In this document: positions 13,403 to 19,494 of the stretch, piece after piece
Layout of the letters: each line of letters begins with the position of its first letter
Position numbering within the stretch: the stretch's first letter is position 1
Assembly: GCF_000011465.1 (NCBI RefSeq)
Contig: NC_005072.1
Coordinates: 960,001-992,000, forward strand
DNA length: 32,000 nt
Reading direction: 5' to 3'
Source of the DNA: Prochlorococcus marinus subsp. pastoris str. CCMP1986
GTDB lineage: Bacteria; Cyanobacteriota; Cyanobacteriia; PCC-6307; Cyanobiaceae
Made by a program: the position numbers and the translations under genes
Notes under the pieces: model-generated
The model's input: only the letters and a program-made list of their open reading frames with translations
Database searches by the model: none
What the model was told of the DNA's origin: nothing

Positions 13403-14191
13403 TTAAAATTTATTTCCAATTTTTGGAATTATTAACGAAGCAACGCAAATAACACTTATTGCAGGACCAGGAGATAAGTTAAAAACAATTGAAAGAATAA
13501 AACCCAATAGAGAAATACAAAGTCCAAAGAATGAAGATCTCATCATTGCAATCCTAAGACTTTGTGCTTTATCAAGTCCTAATAAAGTAGGTGTTGAAAG
13601 TAATGCAATTACTAAAATTACTCCAACAGCAGACATTGAACTAACGATAACTAGTGCCGTCGTGAAACTTAGAGCTAGGTTTAACAAAGACACATTTATT
13701 CCACTAGCTGAGGCGCCCTCTGGATCTAATCCGACATATACAACTTTTTCATATCCGAACGTTACTAATAAAATGAATGTTAGAAAAGCAATAATTGTTC
13801 TTAACAAATCGCCAAGGTTTGCGGTTAATAAATCCCCAAATAATACTGCCTCTAAATCAATTCTTATCCCAAGAAGTGGAATTAGTAAAACCCCAAAACC
13901 AAGCATGCCAGCAAGAATTGTATTCATAACTGCTTCATAATTTTCACTTTTTTTATTAGTTAAACTCTCCGCAATAATTGCTCCGACAAGACCACTTATA
14001 ACTCCTCCAATTGAGGGATGAATACCTAGAGCTAGAGCTAGAGCTAGTCCCGGTAAAACACAATGAGAAATTAAATTTACTTGTAATAGTCTTCTATGAG
14101 TAATCAATACTGTTCCCATGGCTGGGCATAATATTCCAGAGAAAATAGTAATTATTAAAGGAATTAACCACCAGTTGTTTAAAAAAGACAT
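13403..14191 (-). CDS. znuB: ABC-3 family metal (zinc) ABC transporter permease
   Basis: 262 aa and polytopic. …VLITHRRLLQVNLISHCVLPGLALALALG… is the ABC-3 (ZnuB/MntB) pattern. It lies in a cluster with zur, znuC and znuA. Confidence 0.85.
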   Translation of the reverse strand: MSFLNNWWLIPLIITIFSGILCPAMGTVLITHRRLLQVNLISHCVLPGLALALALGIHPSIGGVISGLVGAIIAESLTNKKSENYEAVMNTILAGMLGFGVLLIPLLGIRIDLEAVLFGDLLTANLGDLLRTIIAFLTFILLVTFGYEKVVYVGLDPEGASASGINVSLLNLALSFTTALVIVSSMSAVGVILVIALLSTPTLLGLDKAQSLRIAMMRSSFFGLCISLLGFILSIVFNLSPGPAISVICVASLIIPKIGNKF

Positions 14192-14238: not shown

Positions 14239-14643
14239 TTGAAAATAATGGTAACCAAGCCCGACATTACCAAAAGACAAGAGCAACTTCTTGAAGAACT
14301 TAAAAAATGTGATGATGAATTGAGTGGTCAAGAATTGCATAGGCTATTGATTATCGAAGGCAAATCCATGGGGTTGACAACAGTTTATAGAAATCTTCAA
14401 ACTCTTATAAAACATGGATTGATTCGATCTAGACATCTTCCAACAGGTGAAGTACTTTACACTCCTGTTGATAGAGATATTCACCATCTGACATGTGTTC
14501 AATGTGGAGAAACCTCCAAAATGGAAGGTTGTCCGGTAAAAGATATTCATAGTCCAAAGAAAAACCCAAAAAAATTTCAACTTTTGTTTCATACACTTGA
14601 ATATTTCGGCCTTTGCCAAAACTGTTATCAAGCTCAGAGTTAA
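14239..14643 (+). CDS. zur: Fur-family metalloregulator, probably the zinc uptake regulator Zur
   Basis: 134 aa with a winged-helix N-terminus (…SGQELHRLL…GLTTVYRNLQTL…). This is followed by HHLTCVQCG and CQNCY CxxC pairs. The ATG at 14248 is a likely alternative to the TTG at 14239. The gene is embedded in the znu cluster. Confidence 0.85.
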   Translation: MKIMVTKPDITKRQEQLLEELKKCDDELSGQELHRLLIIEGKSMGLTTVYRNLQTLIKHGLIRSRHLPTGEVLYTPVDRDIHHLTCVQCGETSKMEGCPVKDIHSPKKNPKKFQLLFHTLEYFGLCQNCYQAQS

Positions 14644-14678: not shown

Positions 14679-15428
14679 TTATAAAGAACTAATATTGAGA
14701 TCATCCAATTTGCCTTGTATTGAATTGGGAGTTCCGGATGCTAATACTGTTTTATCTAAAACAACAACCTGATCATAACTATTGAGAGATGAGCCCCAAT
14801 CATGACTACTTATAAACAGAGCTAAGCCTGCATCTGCAAGTTTACGGACTATTTTAAGAAAATCGTCTTTTGCGGGAGGATCTAATGCAGCACATGGTTC
14901 ATCTAGCAGAAGAATTCTTGCAGGAGACATTAAAGTTTTAGCCAAAAGTGCTCTTTGTTGTTGTCCGCCTGAAAGAGAATCAAGTCTTCTATTTGCAAGA
15001 TTTGAAATGCCAACTCTTTGCATTGTTGCTTCCAATTCGCAACATTTATTAACCCAAGACTTTGGATTTGCGAGAAGAGCCTTTATTTGGAATGGATTAG
15101 TATTTTTTGATTTTGAATATTTTATTTGACCTAATGAGACTAATTTTTCAACAGTAATCGGAAATTTCCAATTCATTGAGCTTCTTTGTGGCATAAGTGC
15201 AACCTGGGATCTAGTTCTAACTAAACTTTCACCATCAATTGTTATATCTCCAATATCAGGATTATTTTGTCCTTGCAATAATTTCAAAAGAGTTGATTTA
15301 CCAGCTCCATTTGGTCCAACAAGAGCAGTCAATGTTCCTGGTTTTATTTGAACCGAAACCTTATTTAAAGCTGGCTTGCTTTTTTTTGAATAAGAATAAG
15401 TTAAATTATCTGCAATTAAAGTAGCCAT
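14679..15428 (-). CDS. znuC: Metal (zinc) ABC transporter ATP-binding protein
   Basis: 249 aa with Walker A GPNGAGKST, signature LSGGQQQR and Walker B ILLLDEP. Confidence 0.9.
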   Translation of the reverse strand: MATLIADNLTYSYSKKSKPALNKVSVQIKPGTLTALVGPNGAGKSTLLKLLQGQNNPDIGDITIDGESLVRTRSQVALMPQRSSMNWKFPITVEKLVSLGQIKYSKSKNTNPFQIKALLANPKSWVNKCCELEATMQRVGISNLANRRLDSLSGGQQQRALLAKTLMSPARILLLDEPCAALDPPAKDDFLKIVRKLADAGLALFISSHDWGSSLNSYDQVVVLDKTVLASGTPNSIQGKLDDLNISSL

Positions 15429-15528
15429 TAAAGAATATATTTAAGTCAGTTAGACCTTTATTTTATCAATATTAAGGAATCCATACTTATTTCATAACAA
15501 TTAATACCAAATATTGCTATGAATTATG

Positions 15529-15545
15529 AAAATGATTATCATTTT
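15529..15545. promoter_or_regulatory. Fur/Zur box in the divergent znuC-znuA promoter region
   Basis: AAAATGAT-T-ATCATTTT is a perfect 8-1-8 palindrome 22 bp upstream of the znuA ATG. The 19-mer at 15528-15546 matches the classical Fur-box consensus GATAATGATAATCATTATC at 15 of 19 positions by my count. Confidence 0.7.
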
Positions 15546-15566: not shown

Positions 15567-16988
15567 ATGTCAATTTTTAAAAAAGTAATCTTTAGTAATA
15601 AGAGATCTAATCATTCTGTTATCAAAAACTCTTTATTAGCTGGAACCGTATTATTATCAACAGTTGCTCAAGATGTTTTAGCGAAAGAAAAATCATATGT
15701 AGCTGTAGAGCCACTCACTTGCGATTTAGTAAAATCTATTGCCTTACCTTCTGATGAAGTAACTTGTTTGGTTGATAGAAAACAAGATGTACATGACTTT
15801 AAAATAACTCCAAGACAAGCTCAATTACTTAAAAGTGCGGATAAAGTTTTTACTCTAGGGAAAGAGATGACCCCAAGCATGAAAAATTGGGAGGGTAAGC
15901 CTCAAACAGTTGTAATTGGTGTAAGTGCTATAGATATAGATGATCACTCTGGGCATGATGACCATGCAGAAGGTTCATTTGAATGGGCAGGCAAATTTCA
16001 ACTCTCTAAAGGTTCCTACAAATGGTCATTCGCAAAGGTAGGAGGGGAATATGCAGATCCAGCTATGAAAATGGTGATTCTCGAATCAAATGATATTGAA
16101 TCTTCTGAAAAACTTGCTAAAGAACTATTAGGTTCTAAGAAGTCAATAAATAAAAAAAATAATGGGACTCTTGTAGCTAGTAATAAAGCCTATGTTCTTA
16201 ATTTTGATCAAGGGAAGGAGAGTACAGTATTTAATGTAGAAATTCAAGAAGATGGCCAATATACATTCTTCACTGAACATATGCCTTTTGAGTTTGAAGC
16301 CGAAGAACACTTCTTTAAAGATTTATCTAATAGCGATGTTGAACCAATTGCACAAGTTCCAGATGAAGGCGAGGGAAATCATCACCATGATCACGGAGGA
16401 TTAGATCCACATGTTTGGCATGATCCTCATAACATCAAAAAGATGGGAGAAGTTGTAAGTAAAAGTTTAAAGAAAGATATCTCTGTTTTTAATAGATCTG
16501 ACAGGAAATCAATCAATGCGAGCTTTGCTTCAGTAGATTCAACACTAGAAGAACTTGATAGCTGGATTGTTGCACAGGTCTCAACAATTCCAGAATCCAA
16601 CAGAGTTATTGTATCTAAACATAAAGCAATGGAATATTACGGCAATGCTTTTGGATTTGAGACTATTAGCTTACTAGATTTTATTGGTGACTCATCAAGT
16701 TTAAGACCTGACAATATTCAATCAACGTTGAAGATGCTTGATGAAGAAAATGTTAAGGCAATATTTCCTGAACAAATACCAGCTTCTAAGTTATTAAAAA
16801 ACTTGAGTAGACAAAGTTCAGTTCCTTTAGCTTCTAATCAAATATTTGTTGATGGATTAATGATGACAGGGAATACAGTTTCTGTTGCTGTTCACAATAC
16901 ATGTACCATTGTTAATTCATTAGGTGGAACATGTGATAAGGAAGCAGGCTCCAGCATTGAAGGCAACTGGATTTCTCTACAAAATTAA
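15567..16988 (+). CDS. znuA: Cluster-9 periplasmic metal (zinc)-binding protein with a large insertion in its His-rich loop
   Basis: 473 aa with an N-terminal signal-like segment. The canonical blocks DVHDFKITP, GGLDPHVWHDPHN, VSKHKAMEYYGNAFG and IFPEQ are present. His-rich stretches DDHSGHDDH and GNHHHDHGG flank about 140 extra residues (aa ~125-277). Confidence 0.85.
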   Translation: MSIFKKVIFSNKRSNHSVIKNSLLAGTVLLSTVAQDVLAKEKSYVAVEPLTCDLVKSIALPSDEVTCLVDRKQDVHDFKITPRQAQLLKSADKVFTLGKEMTPSMKNWEGKPQTVVIGVSAIDIDDHSGHDDHAEGSFEWAGKFQLSKGSYKWSFAKVGGEYADPAMKMVILESNDIESSEKLAKELLGSKKSINKKNNGTLVASNKAYVLNFDQGKESTVFNVEIQEDGQYTFFTEHMPFEFEAEEHFFKDLSNSDVEPIAQVPDEGEGNHHHDHGGLDPHVWHDPHNIKKMGEVVSKSLKKDISVFNRSDRKSINASFASVDSTLEELDSWIVAQVSTIPESNRVIVSKHKAMEYYGNAFGFETISLLDFIGDSSSLRPDNIQSTLKMLDEENVKAIFPEQIPASKLLKNLSRQSSVPLASNQIFVDGLMMTGNTVSVAVHNTCTIVNSLGGTCDKEAGSSIEGNWISLQN

Positions 16989-16999
16989 ACTTTTCTATA

Positions 17000-17018
17000 G
17001 ATAACGGTTTTCATTATC
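17000..17018. promoter_or_regulatory. Candidate Fur/Zur box upstream of the COG0523 gene
   Basis: Read on the minus strand this is GATAATGAAAACCGTTATC. It matches the classical Fur-box consensus at 16 of 19 positions by my count. It lies inside the longer inverted repeat TAGATAA-N9-TTATCTA (16998-17020), 57 bp before the ATG at 17075. Confidence 0.5.
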
Positions 17019-17074
17019 TAATAATGTCTAGTATATTGATTGCTAGGCATTATTTTAATTAGATCAATTAATAG

Positions 17075-18433
17075 ATGAGTATCAACGAAAAAGTTCCTGT
17101 TACAATCCTTACTGGATTCTTAGGCTCAGGTAAAACAACTCTTCTTAATAGAATATTAAGTGAAGAGCATGGTAAGAGAATCGCTGTTATTGAGAATGAA
17201 TACGGTGAAGTTGGGATAGATCAAGGTCTTGTAATAAATGCTGATGAAGAAGTATTTGAAATGTCTAATGGTTGCATTTGTTGTACTGTTCGCGGAGATC
17301 TTATTAGAGTCCTTGGTAATTTAATGAAAAGAAGGGATAAATTTGACTACGTTTTAGTTGAAACAACTGGGTTAGCTGACCCTGGTCCTGTTGCTCAAAC
17401 ATTTTTTATGGATGAAGAAATTAGTTCTGAATTCACACTTGATGGAATAGTTACATTAGTTGATGCAGCTCATATTGATCAACAACTTGGGCGTAGTGAT
17501 GAGAGTTCTGAACAAGTGGCATTTGCAGATGTCTTAGTCCTTAATAAAACGGATTTAGTCTCAAATGATGCTCTTGACAACCTTGAATCAAGATTAAGAG
17601 ATATGAATCGAATGACTCGTATTATTCGAGCAGAGAAAGCAGATGTTCCTATTGAGACAGTTTTAAATTTAAGTGCTTTCGATCTTGACCAAATTTTAAA
17701 GCGTAGACCAACTTTCTTAGAACCTGAATATCCTTTTGAATGGTCAGGAGTTTATGAGCTTGAGCCTGGAAAATATGAATTAAAACTTGAAGAAGGGCCT
17801 GATCCTGAAATGTCCTTAGTAGCTTTTGCTAATCAAGGATTTAGTGAAGAAGAATTAAAAGAGAGTGCAGAAGCCTCTGTAAGACTTTATGCAGAAAAAG
17901 CTAAAAACTTAGAATCTGGAAATACTATTCCATATGATGAGCATGTAAGTCTTAAATTGCAAAACAAAGGATCTAAATCTTTTATTTTGGATATTGAAAA
18001 AGCGTCAAAAATTGGATTGTTCACACAACATACTGCTGAAGAATTCAATATGAAAGTGCTAAAAATAGACTCCCAAGATAATGTTAAGGAAATTCCTTTT
18101 AAAACTGAAAGAAACTGGGTCGCAGAACATGAACATGATGATGAAGTTGGATCAATTGCAATAGAGCGTTTTGGAGATGTAGATCCTGAAAAGTTGAATA
18201 CTTGGATGGGAAGACTTCTTTCCGAGAAAGGAGTTGATATATTCAGAACAAAAGGGTTTATTAGTTATTCTGGCAACCCACGCCGAATAGTATTTCAAGG
18301 AGTTCATATGTTATTTACTGCCCAACCAGATAAAGAATGGGGAAATGAACCACGGAGAAATCAACTCGTGTTTATTGGAAGAAATCTAAATGAAAAAGAA
18401 ATGCAAGAGGGATTTGATAAGTGCCTGATATAG
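17075..18433 (+). CDS. COG0523-family (CobW/YjiA/ZigA-like) G3E GTPase, a putative zinc metallochaperone, with an inserted module
   Basis: 452 aa with Walker A GFLGSGKTT, the family metal motif GCICC, and ETTGLADP and NKTD. The CobW_C-like C-terminus reads …IFRTKGFISY…RIVFQGVH…LVFIGRNL. About 135 extra residues (aa ~221-356) separate the two domains and end in EHEHDDE. Confidence 0.9.
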   Translation: MSINEKVPVTILTGFLGSGKTTLLNRILSEEHGKRIAVIENEYGEVGIDQGLVINADEEVFEMSNGCICCTVRGDLIRVLGNLMKRRDKFDYVLVETTGLADPGPVAQTFFMDEEISSEFTLDGIVTLVDAAHIDQQLGRSDESSEQVAFADVLVLNKTDLVSNDALDNLESRLRDMNRMTRIIRAEKADVPIETVLNLSAFDLDQILKRRPTFLEPEYPFEWSGVYELEPGKYELKLEEGPDPEMSLVAFANQGFSEEELKESAEASVRLYAEKAKNLESGNTIPYDEHVSLKLQNKGSKSFILDIEKASKIGLFTQHTAEEFNMKVLKIDSQDNVKEIPFKTERNWVAEHEHDDEVGSIAIERFGDVDPEKLNTWMGRLLSEKGVDIFRTKGFISYSGNPRRIVFQGVHMLFTAQPDKEWGNEPRRNQLVFIGRNLNEKEMQEGFDKCLI

Positions 18434-19494
18434 AACCTTTTAGCCCTAGAGGCATGTTTCATGAAGGTTGGTCTGCTGAAGTTGATGATTATGCAATAGT
18501 TTGTGGTTGGGCTTTAAAAGGGAAACTCTTTATCGTTGGAGACGTAGTTGGAGGGCTTTATGGGTTCGACGGAGATACAGGAAAGCTTATTTGGAAACAA
18601 GATGAAGCCCATTCCGGAGGTCTTCTTGCAATGTCTATCCATCCGAATGGAGAGATTTTTGCAACTTCAGGGCAAGACGGAATAGTTCGAATATTAAATT
18701 GCAATAATGGGGAGGAAATTAAAGCCATTAAACTTGGTAAAGGTTGGGTTGAACATTTAAGTTGGTCAAATGGAGGTTTATATTTAGCCGTAGCTTTTTC
18801 CAAAAAAGTATATGTATTTAATCAAGATGGTAATGAACAATGGGGTTCAGAAGAACATCCGAGTACAGTAAGTGCCATATCGTGGTCGAATAAGAATGAG
18901 TTAGCAACTGCATGCTACGGACGCGTAACTTTCTTTGATATAGCAAACAAAAAGACTAATCAGAAACTTGAATGGCAAGGTTCACTAGTTTCGATGCAGT
19001 TAAGCCCTGATGGAGATATTGTCGCCTGTGGGAGTCAAGATAATTCGGTACATTTCTGGCGTAGATCAACTGGACTTGATGCTGAAATGACAGGTTATCC
19101 TGGAAAGCCTTCTCACCTTTCTTTTGATGATAGTGGCATGCTATTAGCAACTAGTGGTAGCGAAAGAATTACAGTATGGAGTTTTTCAGGAAATGGCCCT
19201 GAAGGAACGATGCCAGGAGAATTATGTCATCATACTGAACCAATTTCTAGCCTAGCTTTTTCTAACAAAGGTTTACTAGTCGCTTCAGGTTCAAGAGATG
19301 GTTCAGTAGTAGCTAGTTTTCTTAAAAACGACGGAAATGGGGATCCTGTAGGAGCTGCTTTTGCTGGAGATTTAGTTGGAGATATTGCTTGGAGACCCGA
19401 TGACTGCGCTTTAGCTGCAGTTAATGCGAAGGGTGTTGTAACCGTTTGGAATTTTAAAGTCCGAACAAGTTCCTCTTCAAAAGGATTCAAGTAA
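18421..19494 (+). CDS. WD40-repeat beta-propeller protein
   Basis: 357 aa with repeated WD-like units (…IFATSGQDGIVRILN…, …IVACGSQDNSVHFW…, …LLATSGSERITVW…, …LVASGSRDGSVV…, …AVNAKGVVTVWN). The GTG start overlaps the COG0523 stop by 13 nt. An alternative ATG lies at 18454. Confidence 0.85.
   Translation: MPDIEPFSPRGMFHEGWSAEVDDYAIVCGWALKGKLFIVGDVVGGLYGFDGDTGKLIWKQDEAHSGGLLAMSIHPNGEIFATSGQDGIVRILNCNNGEEIKAIKLGKGWVEHLSWSNGGLYLAVAFSKKVYVFNQDGNEQWGSEEHPSTVSAISWSNKNELATACYGRVTFFDIANKKTNQKLEWQGSLVSMQLSPDGDIVACGSQDNSVHFWRRSTGLDAEMTGYPGKPSHLSFDDSGMLLATSGSERITVWSFSGNGPEGTMPGELCHHTEPISSLAFSNKGLLVASGSRDGSVVASFLKNDGNGDPVGAAFAGDLVGDIAWRPDDCALAAVNAKGVVTVWNFKVRTSSSSKGFK

Follow-up and report, generated by a model that had tools for sequence, protein, structure and literature searches.

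We analyzed a 32,000-nucleotide stretch of the genome of Prochlorococcus marinus subsp. pastoris str. CCMP1986 (NC_005072.1, positions 960,001 to 992,000; hereafter the window), which is low in GC, about 24–38%. The window carries a divergent ZnuABC-COG0523 gene cluster in which znuA, encoding a metal-binding protein, is followed directly by a gene for a COG0523 GTPase (Table 1), and the products of these two neighboring genes each contain a long insert. The initial annotation of the locus had proposed that the two inserts are one and the same module, and the coordinates, sequences and insert positions that it gave for both proteins proved correct. Our analysis establishes that the inserts are homologous, and predicted structures indicate that both are probably copies of one ancient, autonomously folding beta-sandwich domain of ~115–130 amino acids (aa) with one long helix.

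When full-length ZnuA and COG0523 were compared by BLASTP, the only significant alignment was confined to the inserts (aa 112-275 of ZnuA against aa 192-355 of COG0523, 26% identity over 175 columns, E = 6e-8). Aligned on their own, the inserts gave a Smith-Waterman score of 103, compared with 33 ± 6 for shuffled sequences (z = 11.9). This comparison with shuffled controls had been named beforehand as a test of the idea, and 0 of 2000 shuffles reached the observed score. After the His-rich ends were removed the score was 87 against 31 ± 6 (z = 9.7), and a reversed-sequence control scored 36. A single module is thus present in both proteins, as had been claimed. The ZnuA copy, however, is only 23% identical to the neighboring COG0523 copy, compared with 48-62% to the modules in ZnuAs of other taxa. 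Clustering of 132 module instances resolved three deep subfamilies, one of ZnuA, ZIP and other extracytoplasmic copies (63 instances), one of the COG0523 type, which includes a CDF C-terminal copy (53), and one associated with CbiM (9), and the two copies in the window fall into different subfamilies. The low identity and the separate subfamilies together argue that the pair did not arise by recent or local duplication. Therefore, of the proposal that one module is shared within a Zur regulon, the homology stands and the copying within the regulon does not; by the sequence comparison, two old lineages of one domain appear to have come to occupy adjacent genes.

We examined the position of the insert in each host. 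ZnuA matched Pfam PF01297 (E = 7e-43, 147 bits against a cut-off of 29) as one stretch that spans the insert (aa 50-449), while its best NCBIfam match was AztC (107 bits against a cut-off of 350). Foldseek matches of the ZnuA core were YfeA, MtsA, PsaA, TroA, AztC and ZnuA (E ~1e-13, TM-score over the target, TMt, 0.7-0.79). The matched structures are all 255-286 residues long and the TM-score over the query (TMq, ~0.45) was far below TMt (~0.75), so none of them contains the module; PDB homologues likewise align to aa 35-108 and 275-435 only. H76 (in DVHDF), H282 (DPHVW) and H352 (SKHKA) are invariant or nearly so in the ZnuA-type alignment, A3, and from knowledge of the family are the putative metal ligands. 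The insert is located between a strand at aa 113-115 and the DPHVW motif (aa 280-284) with the second ligand His, which is the position of the canonical His-rich loop.

The COG0523 protein matched cobW (PF02492, aa 8-184, E = 2.7e-61) and CobW_C (PF07683, aa 359-451, E = 1.4e-24) in Pfam, and it carries a Walker A motif (GFLGSGKTT, aa 14-22), GCICC (aa 66-70) and RTKG (aa 391-394); an RxKG in the C-terminal domain (CTD) is conserved in COG0523 proteins (bioRxiv 10.64898/2026.03.03.709369). E. coli YjiA aligned with it in two blocks (E = 8e-63), and the insert, aa 215-347, was placed exactly between YjiA residues 214 and 216, that is, in the interdomain linker. In ZigA the linker between the G-domain and the CTD contains a conserved PETEEY, the Glu of which gates Zn-dependent GTPase activity, and the linker region folds over the CxCC metal site (bioRxiv 10.64898/2026.03.03.709369). 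By analogy, the FLEPEY motif of the window's COG0523 would be the equivalent of PETEEY. Since the module follows FLEPEY and the ZigA linker folds over CxCC, the COG0523 module is probably held beside the CxCC site.

To model the fold, AlphaFold2 (AF2) was run on the COG0523 module with a mixed 20-sequence alignment, A1, and on full ZnuA with the ZnuA-type-only alignment A3. The model of the COG0523 module had a predicted local distance difference test score (pLDDT) of 88.2 and a predicted template modeling score (pTM) of 0.80, and it contained 7-8 strands, one 15-residue helix and one short helix. In the model of full ZnuA, the module (aa 136-265) reached a pLDDT of ~88-97, compared with values below 50 in its His-rich flanks (Table 1), which is consistent with disordered linkers around the module. 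Compared by the order of their elements, both models show b1-b2-b3-helix-b4...b7-short helix-b8. Because the ZnuA model was built from ZnuA-type sequences only, it represents a largely independent test of the fold. The two confident models support the earlier description of the insert as a folded module rather than a loop.

The module has the signature FEWxG ... DPxM ... FT(E/Q)HxPxEF. The conserved positions, in module numbering, are E7, W8, G10, D28, M31, H104, P106, E108 and F109, which are kept in 74-96% of the 132 instances; retention across all contexts was 91% for E7, 92% for W8 and for G10, 80% for D28, 96% for H104 and 91% for E108. Their equivalents are E139, W140, G142, D164, M167, H238, P240, E242 and F243 in ZnuA and E222, W223, G225, D243, M246, H319, E323 and F324 in COG0523, so that both window copies carry all signature residues except P106, which is A321 in the COG0523 copy. 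Cys is absent from both copies, a composition that suits both the periplasmic (oxidizing) and the cytoplasmic (reducing) setting. The sequence on either side of the module is rich in His: 30-aa flanks with at least 3 His were found in 43% of cases upstream and 56% downstream, versus 4% elsewhere in the same proteins (p ~1e-15 and 6e-28), an enrichment of ~10-fold. In the window the ZnuA copy is flanked by DDHSGHDDH and NHHHDH, and the COG0523 copy has a His-rich flank downstream only (EHEHDDE).

Using a profile of the module, we searched 1.84 billion cluster representatives exhaustively with HMMER and obtained 539 representatives at E<=1e-3, 181 of them at E<=1e-10. Host domains were assigned by Pfam on 97 of the best matches and comprised ZnuA (24 representatives), cobW plus CobW_C, i.e. 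COG0523 (16), ZIP (10), the CusB/HlyD adaptor (3), CbiM (2), Cation_efflux, i.e. CDF (1), and CbtA (1). By these counts, the host domains that were recognized come almost entirely from families that traffic metal. When the module was mapped locally, ZnuA loops had one copy or two in tandem, ZIP transporters had two at the N-terminus, likewise in tandem, a Paenibacillus CDF protein had one at the C-terminus, CusB-type adaptors had N-terminal copies, CbiM had copies inserted in its loops, and CbtA was fused to the module. A tblastn search with the COG0523 module as single query detected modules within haloarchaeal ZnuA-type proteins (E ~3e-9). The haloarchaeal carriers are Halorubrum, Haloarcula, Halorientalis, Halosolutus, Natrinema and Halomontanus; the module is also carried by Bacillota (Paenibacillus, Alicyclobacillus), Proteobacteria (Paraburkholderia, Pantoea), Rubrobacteraceae, Verrucomicrobiota and Ktedonobacteraceae, while viral relatives were looked for and none were found. 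The module is therefore not restricted to marine picocyanobacteria, as had been asked at the outset. Nor is it specific to zinc, as had been supposed: most hosts are of the zinc type (ZnuA, ZIP, CDF and COG0523 linked to Zur), yet cobalt and nickel are the metals of the CbiM, CbtA and NikL contexts, and the module occurs on cobalt/nickel energy-coupling factor (ECF) importers, CbtA, and CDF and CusB-type efflux proteins. The domain thus tracks divalent-metal trafficking generally.

Some of the carriers deserve separate mention. ZIP proteins that have a signal peptide and, after it, one or two N-terminal modules (P0135, P0161, P0163, P0164, P0195, P0199, P0205, P0209 and P0254) come from ~2 kb Joint Genome Institute (JGI) contigs and look like proteins of eukaryotic phytoplankton. 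The metagenomic fragments P0004, P0014, P0081, P0082 and P0142 end in LSLIHI or CLLYTSPSPRD, and these ends look like translated sequencing adapter; they are artefacts of assembly within the public protein collection. On the Alicyclobacillus curvatus plasmid CP071185.1 (L091, 6835-7746), the module lies in a 303-aa "hypothetical protein" encoded downstream of genes for a metal-sensitive regulator and a 2Fe-2S ferredoxin-domain protein, and beside two "cation transporter" genes (CDF-type), a winged-helix regulator and a divalent metal transporter; this locus is a plasmid-borne metal-homeostasis island.

The initial annotation had also asked whether the module ever stands alone, and it does, in complete lipoproteins of ~180 aa, in which a lipobox is followed by a stretch rich in His, then by the module, and last by a C-terminus that is again His-rich. 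All 3 Firmicute-type lipoproteins of this kind whose surroundings were checked adjoin cbiM-cbiQ-cbiO and a NikL-like gene inside cobalamin-biosynthesis clusters, and CbiN is not annotated in any of the three. Beside the module lipoprotein and CbiMQO lies an open reading frame (ORF) of ~140 aa (L081 6426-6842, L083 8445-8861, L084 7462-7887), with a signal peptide, His directly after it, a small domain and a C-terminal transmembrane segment; this ORF had no Pfam match and a sub-threshold match to NikL (40 bits against a cut-off of 100). The absence of an annotated CbiN beside this conserved NikL-like ORF suggests a variant ECF cobalt importer composed of CbiM, the NikL-like protein, Q, O and the module lipoprotein.

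Among picocyanobacteria the two hosts differ in how constantly they carry the module. At the protein level, the module region of the window is 93-95% identical to that of single-cell genomes of high-light-clade Prochlorococcus. The COG0523 module was present in 80 of 80 picocyanobacterial loci. A ZnuA lay upstream of COG0523 in 67 of the 70 loci with enough upstream sequence, and of the picocyanobacterial ZnuAs upstream of COG0523, 62 had the module and 6 did not (L044, which is P. marinus MIT 9302, L011, L014, L020, L025 and L064). The module-free ZnuAs have only a (D/H)n loop of ~55 aa. Three states therefore exist at one loop position: the (D/H)n loop (MIT 9302 type), one module (this window), and two tandem modules, seen in the HNLC1 metagenome-assembled genome (MAG; L067), a genome named for high-nutrient, low-chlorophyll waters. 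When the orthologues are aligned, every state shows His-rich runs on both sides of the insert, with GG(L/V)DPHVW coming next. Since the three states occupy the same position, the module behaves as an optional, copy-number-variable elaboration of the His-rich loop.

Together these data led us to favor, at a probability of roughly 0.6, the interpretation that the module serves proteins of divalent-metal trafficking, on either side of the membrane, as a mobile accessory domain that binds Zn(II)/Co(II), captures metal, and then either delivers it to the host's own site or acts as a gate for that site. The conserved polar residues E/D/H/E are such as a Zn/Co site of moderate affinity would show; Zn(II), or Co(II) in other hosts, would be bound there by the two conserved Glu and the conserved His, perhaps joined by the Asp. 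The His-rich tails would help the domain to gather scarce metal, which it would then pass to the high-affinity site of the host, unless it acts by gating that site. The module would in effect be a folded, upgraded version of the His-rich loop. In ZnuA it would be tethered by disordered His-rich linkers beside the mouth of the His3(Asp) site, and in COG0523 it would sit in the linker between G-domain and CTD, with FLEPEY before and EHEHDDE after it, a region that elsewhere folds over CxCC. That metal is bound, by which residues, and which way it is passed on we infer from conservation and context, and the buffering, sensing or hand-off function suggested for the module from the start would fit all of the evidence.

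We considered whether the resemblance of the two inserts could be an artefact, either of compositional bias in loops rich in His, Asp and Glu or of a recent duplication or gene conversion within the locus that has no wider meaning. Low-complexity His/acid runs do flank both inserts, and the genes are adjacent, but the alignment score survives removal of the His-rich ends, the window pair is far more divergent than the ZnuA copy is from ZnuA modules of other taxa and falls into different deep subfamilies, and the profile search found hundreds of representatives in many architectures, so that we regard this reading as already refuted. It is also improbable, though less decisively so, that the module is a named and characterized domain, such as ZinT/YodA, cupin, HMA, CopC/PCuAC or DUF2796/ZrgA, that was overlooked by eye. 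Accessory metal-binding domains on ZnuA-like proteins do exist, the ZinT domain of AdcA being an example, and a few cupins appeared in the Foldseek list. These cupins had a very low probability (<=0.13, E>0.1), however, and significant matches were lacking in every database searched. The isolated inserts had no match in Pfam-A (2025) at E<=10, and seven proteins with stand-alone or tandem modules had none at E<=1; the module and those seven proteins had no match in NCBIfam 20.0 (June 2026) at E<=1 beyond signal-peptide matches; the best E in a PDB sequence-profile search was 0.28; and a Foldseek search of the PDB gave nothing at E<=1e-3. The profile and structure searches that had been suggested with the insert alone thus yielded no match to a named domain, and with neither Pfam nor NCBIfam holding a model that covers the module, it is, as supposed, not a standard or annotated feature of either family. 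Public records name the carriers "hypothetical protein", "GTP-binding protein" or "metal/zinc ABC transporter substrate-binding protein", and a search of full-text literature found no description of a domain shared by ZnuA and COG0523; as judged from sequence, the domain is apparently unnamed. As identities for the module we also tried and rejected ZinT/YodA with its lipocalin-like fold, HMA, and the cupins, which are marked by two His-containing motifs; these families were absent from the Pfam results and neither copy contains Cys.

A more serious competitor, which we nevertheless consider unlikely, is that the module does not bind metal and is a protein-protein docking domain or regulatory spacer, with the His-rich tails holding all of the metal affinity. 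Its partner in ZnuA would be an outer-membrane or periplasmic protein or the permease, while in COG0523 it would position or gate the CTD with respect to the G-domain, or bring in a client, for instance the WD40 protein. Several observations point this way or weigh against the module as a metal carrier. The best Foldseek matches, all non-significant, were jelly-roll sandwiches (GOLD, capsid proteins, C1q/TNF and CBM35), interaction modules of a fold that is more often protein- or sugar-binding. The module core has a single conserved His, and the tails might supply all metal affinity while the core serves another purpose. Joint loss of the candidate ligands was only weakly positive (p ~0.003-0.01) and is confounded by fragments and shared ancestry, and the six Prochlorococcus ZnuAs without the module imply that it is dispensable in that host. 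The linker and CTD of ZigA and MigC regulate the GTPase by interdomain contacts (bioRxiv 10.64898/2026.03.03.709369), and the COG0523-WD40 pair is conserved even without ZnuA. On the other side, one partner cannot account for periplasmic, extracellular and cytoplasmic hosts across bacteria and archaea, and the conserved E/D/H/E set is typical of hard or borderline metal ligands. In orthologous ZnuAs, moreover, the module is interchangeable with a pure poly-His/Asp loop, and next to ECF cobalt importers its stand-alone copies take the place in which one would expect a subunit that captures metal.

The metal-trafficking interpretation can be taken further, though in this wider form it is tentative and rather doubtful. 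The module might be a near-universal Cys-free relay domain for borderline divalent metals (Zn, Co and Ni) in bacteria, archaea and probably algae, a counterpart of HMA mounted on importers, exporters and COG0523 proteins on both sides of the membrane, with its copy number in Prochlorococcus tuning scavenging at picomolar levels. Given that the module serves cobalt import in other hosts, the missing route by which Prochlorococcus obtains the cobalt it requires might also be this "zinc" ZnuABC-COG0523 cluster. Whether the Prochlorococcus cluster handles cobalt too is a question that reportedly comes from Blindauer's group.

The features of the locus are collected in Table 1. The gap between znuA and the COG0523 gene is 86 bp, and no terminator-like site was found when the gap was searched for one, so from the sequence co-transcription of the two genes is plausible. 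The gap also holds an AT-rich inverted repeat, TAGATAA-N11-TTATCTA (16998-17022), which overlaps weak promoter-like sites and is not a canonical Zur box. The palindrome upstream of znuA has 1 mismatch to the cyanobacterial Zur-box consensus TGATAATNATTATCA and is the sole match in the window. At the threshold used (<=2 mismatches) about 1 chance match is expected in the window, and the box alone is not statistically significant; its weight therefore derives from its position and from Barnett et al. 2012 (PMC3323870), who in Prochlorococcus place a Zur box between these two genes, znuA and znuC. The assignment of the FUR-family gene as Zur follows the same study. The regulator scored under all NCBIfam Fur, PerR and Zur cut-offs (PerR 49.7 bits, the best, Fur 45.5 and Zur 25.5), so automated annotation would not give it the name Zur, and these low scores agree with the divergence of cyanobacterial Zur proteins (Barnett et al. 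2012, PMC3323870).

Table 1. Features of the metal-trafficking locus in the window (coordinates are positions in the window).
Feature	Coordinates	Strand	Basis
znuB-type permease	13403-14191	-	Pfam ABC-3, E=5.8e-43
FUR-family regulator, putative Zur of the cluster	14239-14643	+	Pfam FUR, E=1.8e-18
znuC-type ABC ATPase	14679-15428	-	Pfam ABC_tran, E=3.2e-31
Zur-box-like 7-1-7 palindrome TGAAAATGATTATCA, upstream of znuA	15527-15541	.	overlaps -10 hexamer of promoter-like site 15514-15542
znuA, cluster A-I metal-binding protein (AztC/TroA-like), 473 aa	15567-16988	+	Pfam ZnuA; signal-peptide-like N-terminus
N-terminal His-rich linker DDHSGHDDHAE, aa 125-135	15939-15971	+	pLDDT <50 over aa 118-135
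ZnuA module copy, aa 136-265	15972-16361	+	homology, AF2 model, conserved residues
C-terminal His-rich linker DEGEGNHHHDHGGL, aa 266-279, leads into DPHVW	16362-16403	+	pLDDT <50 over aa 267-277
COG0523 G3E GTPase, 452 aa	17075-18433	+	Pfam cobW + CobW_C; YjiA match
FLEPEY linker motif, directly before module	17714-17731	+	conserved among COG0523-type members
COG0523 module copy, aa 216-331	17720-18067	+	AF2 model; alignment A1
EHEHDDE His/acid motif, after module, just before CobW_C	18125-18145	+	relatives keep (Q/E)HEHDDEV
WD40 beta-propeller gene	18421-19494	+	Pfam WD40; overlaps COG0523 stop codon by 13 nt; no signal peptide

The WD40 gene follows COG0523 in 12 of 12 loci examined in full, including L074 (Synechococcus) and L076, in both of which the pair stands without an adjacent ZnuA or Zur. 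Its product had only a weak NCBIfam match, to a BamB-like repeat. That WD40 and znuABC genes go together with this COG0523 subfamily was noted by Haas et al. 2009, and the COG0523-WD40 pairing appears also in Barnett et al. 2012 (PMC3323870); the WD40 protein may be a client or partner of this COG0523 clade. L076 is labeled "uncultured SAR86 cluster bacterium" AG-899-P17, and it and P0078 (labeled as a Gammaproteobacteria MAG) contain a COG0523 of the kind that picocyanobacteria have; the L076 protein shares 89% identity with the window's in the G-domain, and its gene is followed by a WD40 gene. Rather than pointing to transfer, both probably reflect contamination or misbinning of single-cell or MAG contigs.

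We compared the module with known systems. HMA domains (P1B-ATPases, Atx1/CopZ) are likewise small, occur alone or fused in one or several copies to transporters, and serve hand-off. They have a ferredoxin-like fold with a CxxC site and work in the cytoplasm on soft metals, whereas the module is a predicted Cys-free beta-sandwich with an E/D/H/E signature, found inside and outside the cytoplasm on importers, exporters and GTPase chaperones. ZinT/YodA, fused to AdcA or free with ZnuA, is also a folded accessory zinc-binding domain for a ZnuA-type protein, but it is a C-terminal fusion rather than a loop insert, and ZinT families were absent from the module's Pfam and NCBIfam results. The stand-alone lipoproteins occupy the same metal-capture slot beside cbiM, cbiQ and cbiO as the ECF Ni/Co auxiliary subunits CbiN, NikK and NikL, to which they show no sequence similarity (no match in Pfam or NCBIfam). 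The regulatory linker of COG0523 proteins, represented by PETEEY of ZigA, lies in the same place between G-domain and CTD as the FLEPEY-module-EHEHDDE segment; the linkers of ZigA and MigC are short and poorly ordered, whereas that of the window's protein carries an entire folded domain.

The His-rich loop of ZnuA/AztC-type proteins is thought to raise local zinc or pass zinc to the primary site (PMC8786288). Like the module, this loop, known from Synechocystis, E. coli and Salmonella ZnuA and as the "Z-loop" of Paracoccus AztC, lies directly before DPHxW and is rich in His, Asp and Glu; here, in contrast, it holds a ~130-aa folded beta-sandwich, elsewhere two, with conserved residues of its own. 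In COG0523 the insert was already on record. Barnett et al. 2012 (PMC3323870, Front Microbiol 3:142) described a ~150-aa, His-poor insert in "branch 1a" COG0523 proteins, predicted to contain 4-6 strands and 1-2 helices, and regarded it as a possible extra domain for which an InterPro match was absent. It is the same insert in the same clade (Prochlorococcus, Synechococcus WH8102), with the WD40 gene adjacent. That paper did not connect the insert to ZnuA, and it contains neither the wider family nor the stand-alone forms or the conserved signature. The view of the module as an unreported feature consequently holds for the link with ZnuA and not for the COG0523 insert, and what appears to be new is this link, together with the breadth of the family, its stand-alone forms and its conserved signature.

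The finding bears on how metal-binding proteins and COG0523 chaperones take up and release their cargo, and on how the most abundant phototroph supplies itself with zinc and cobalt at picomolar levels, both of which are open problems. A compact domain that recurs among importers, exporters, chaperones and independent lipoproteins gives a mutable handle on hand-off, with 3-4 candidate ligand residues and natural variants of zero, one or two copies. For annotation, it would mark proteins now called "hypothetical", by the hundreds, as metal-trafficking components, and would do the same for the so far unexplained additional residues in many ZnuA, ZIP and COG0523 proteins. In Prochlorococcus, the copy number of the ZnuA module may be an ecotype marker of the trace-metal regime, and it could serve as a metagenomic marker of trace-metal stress.

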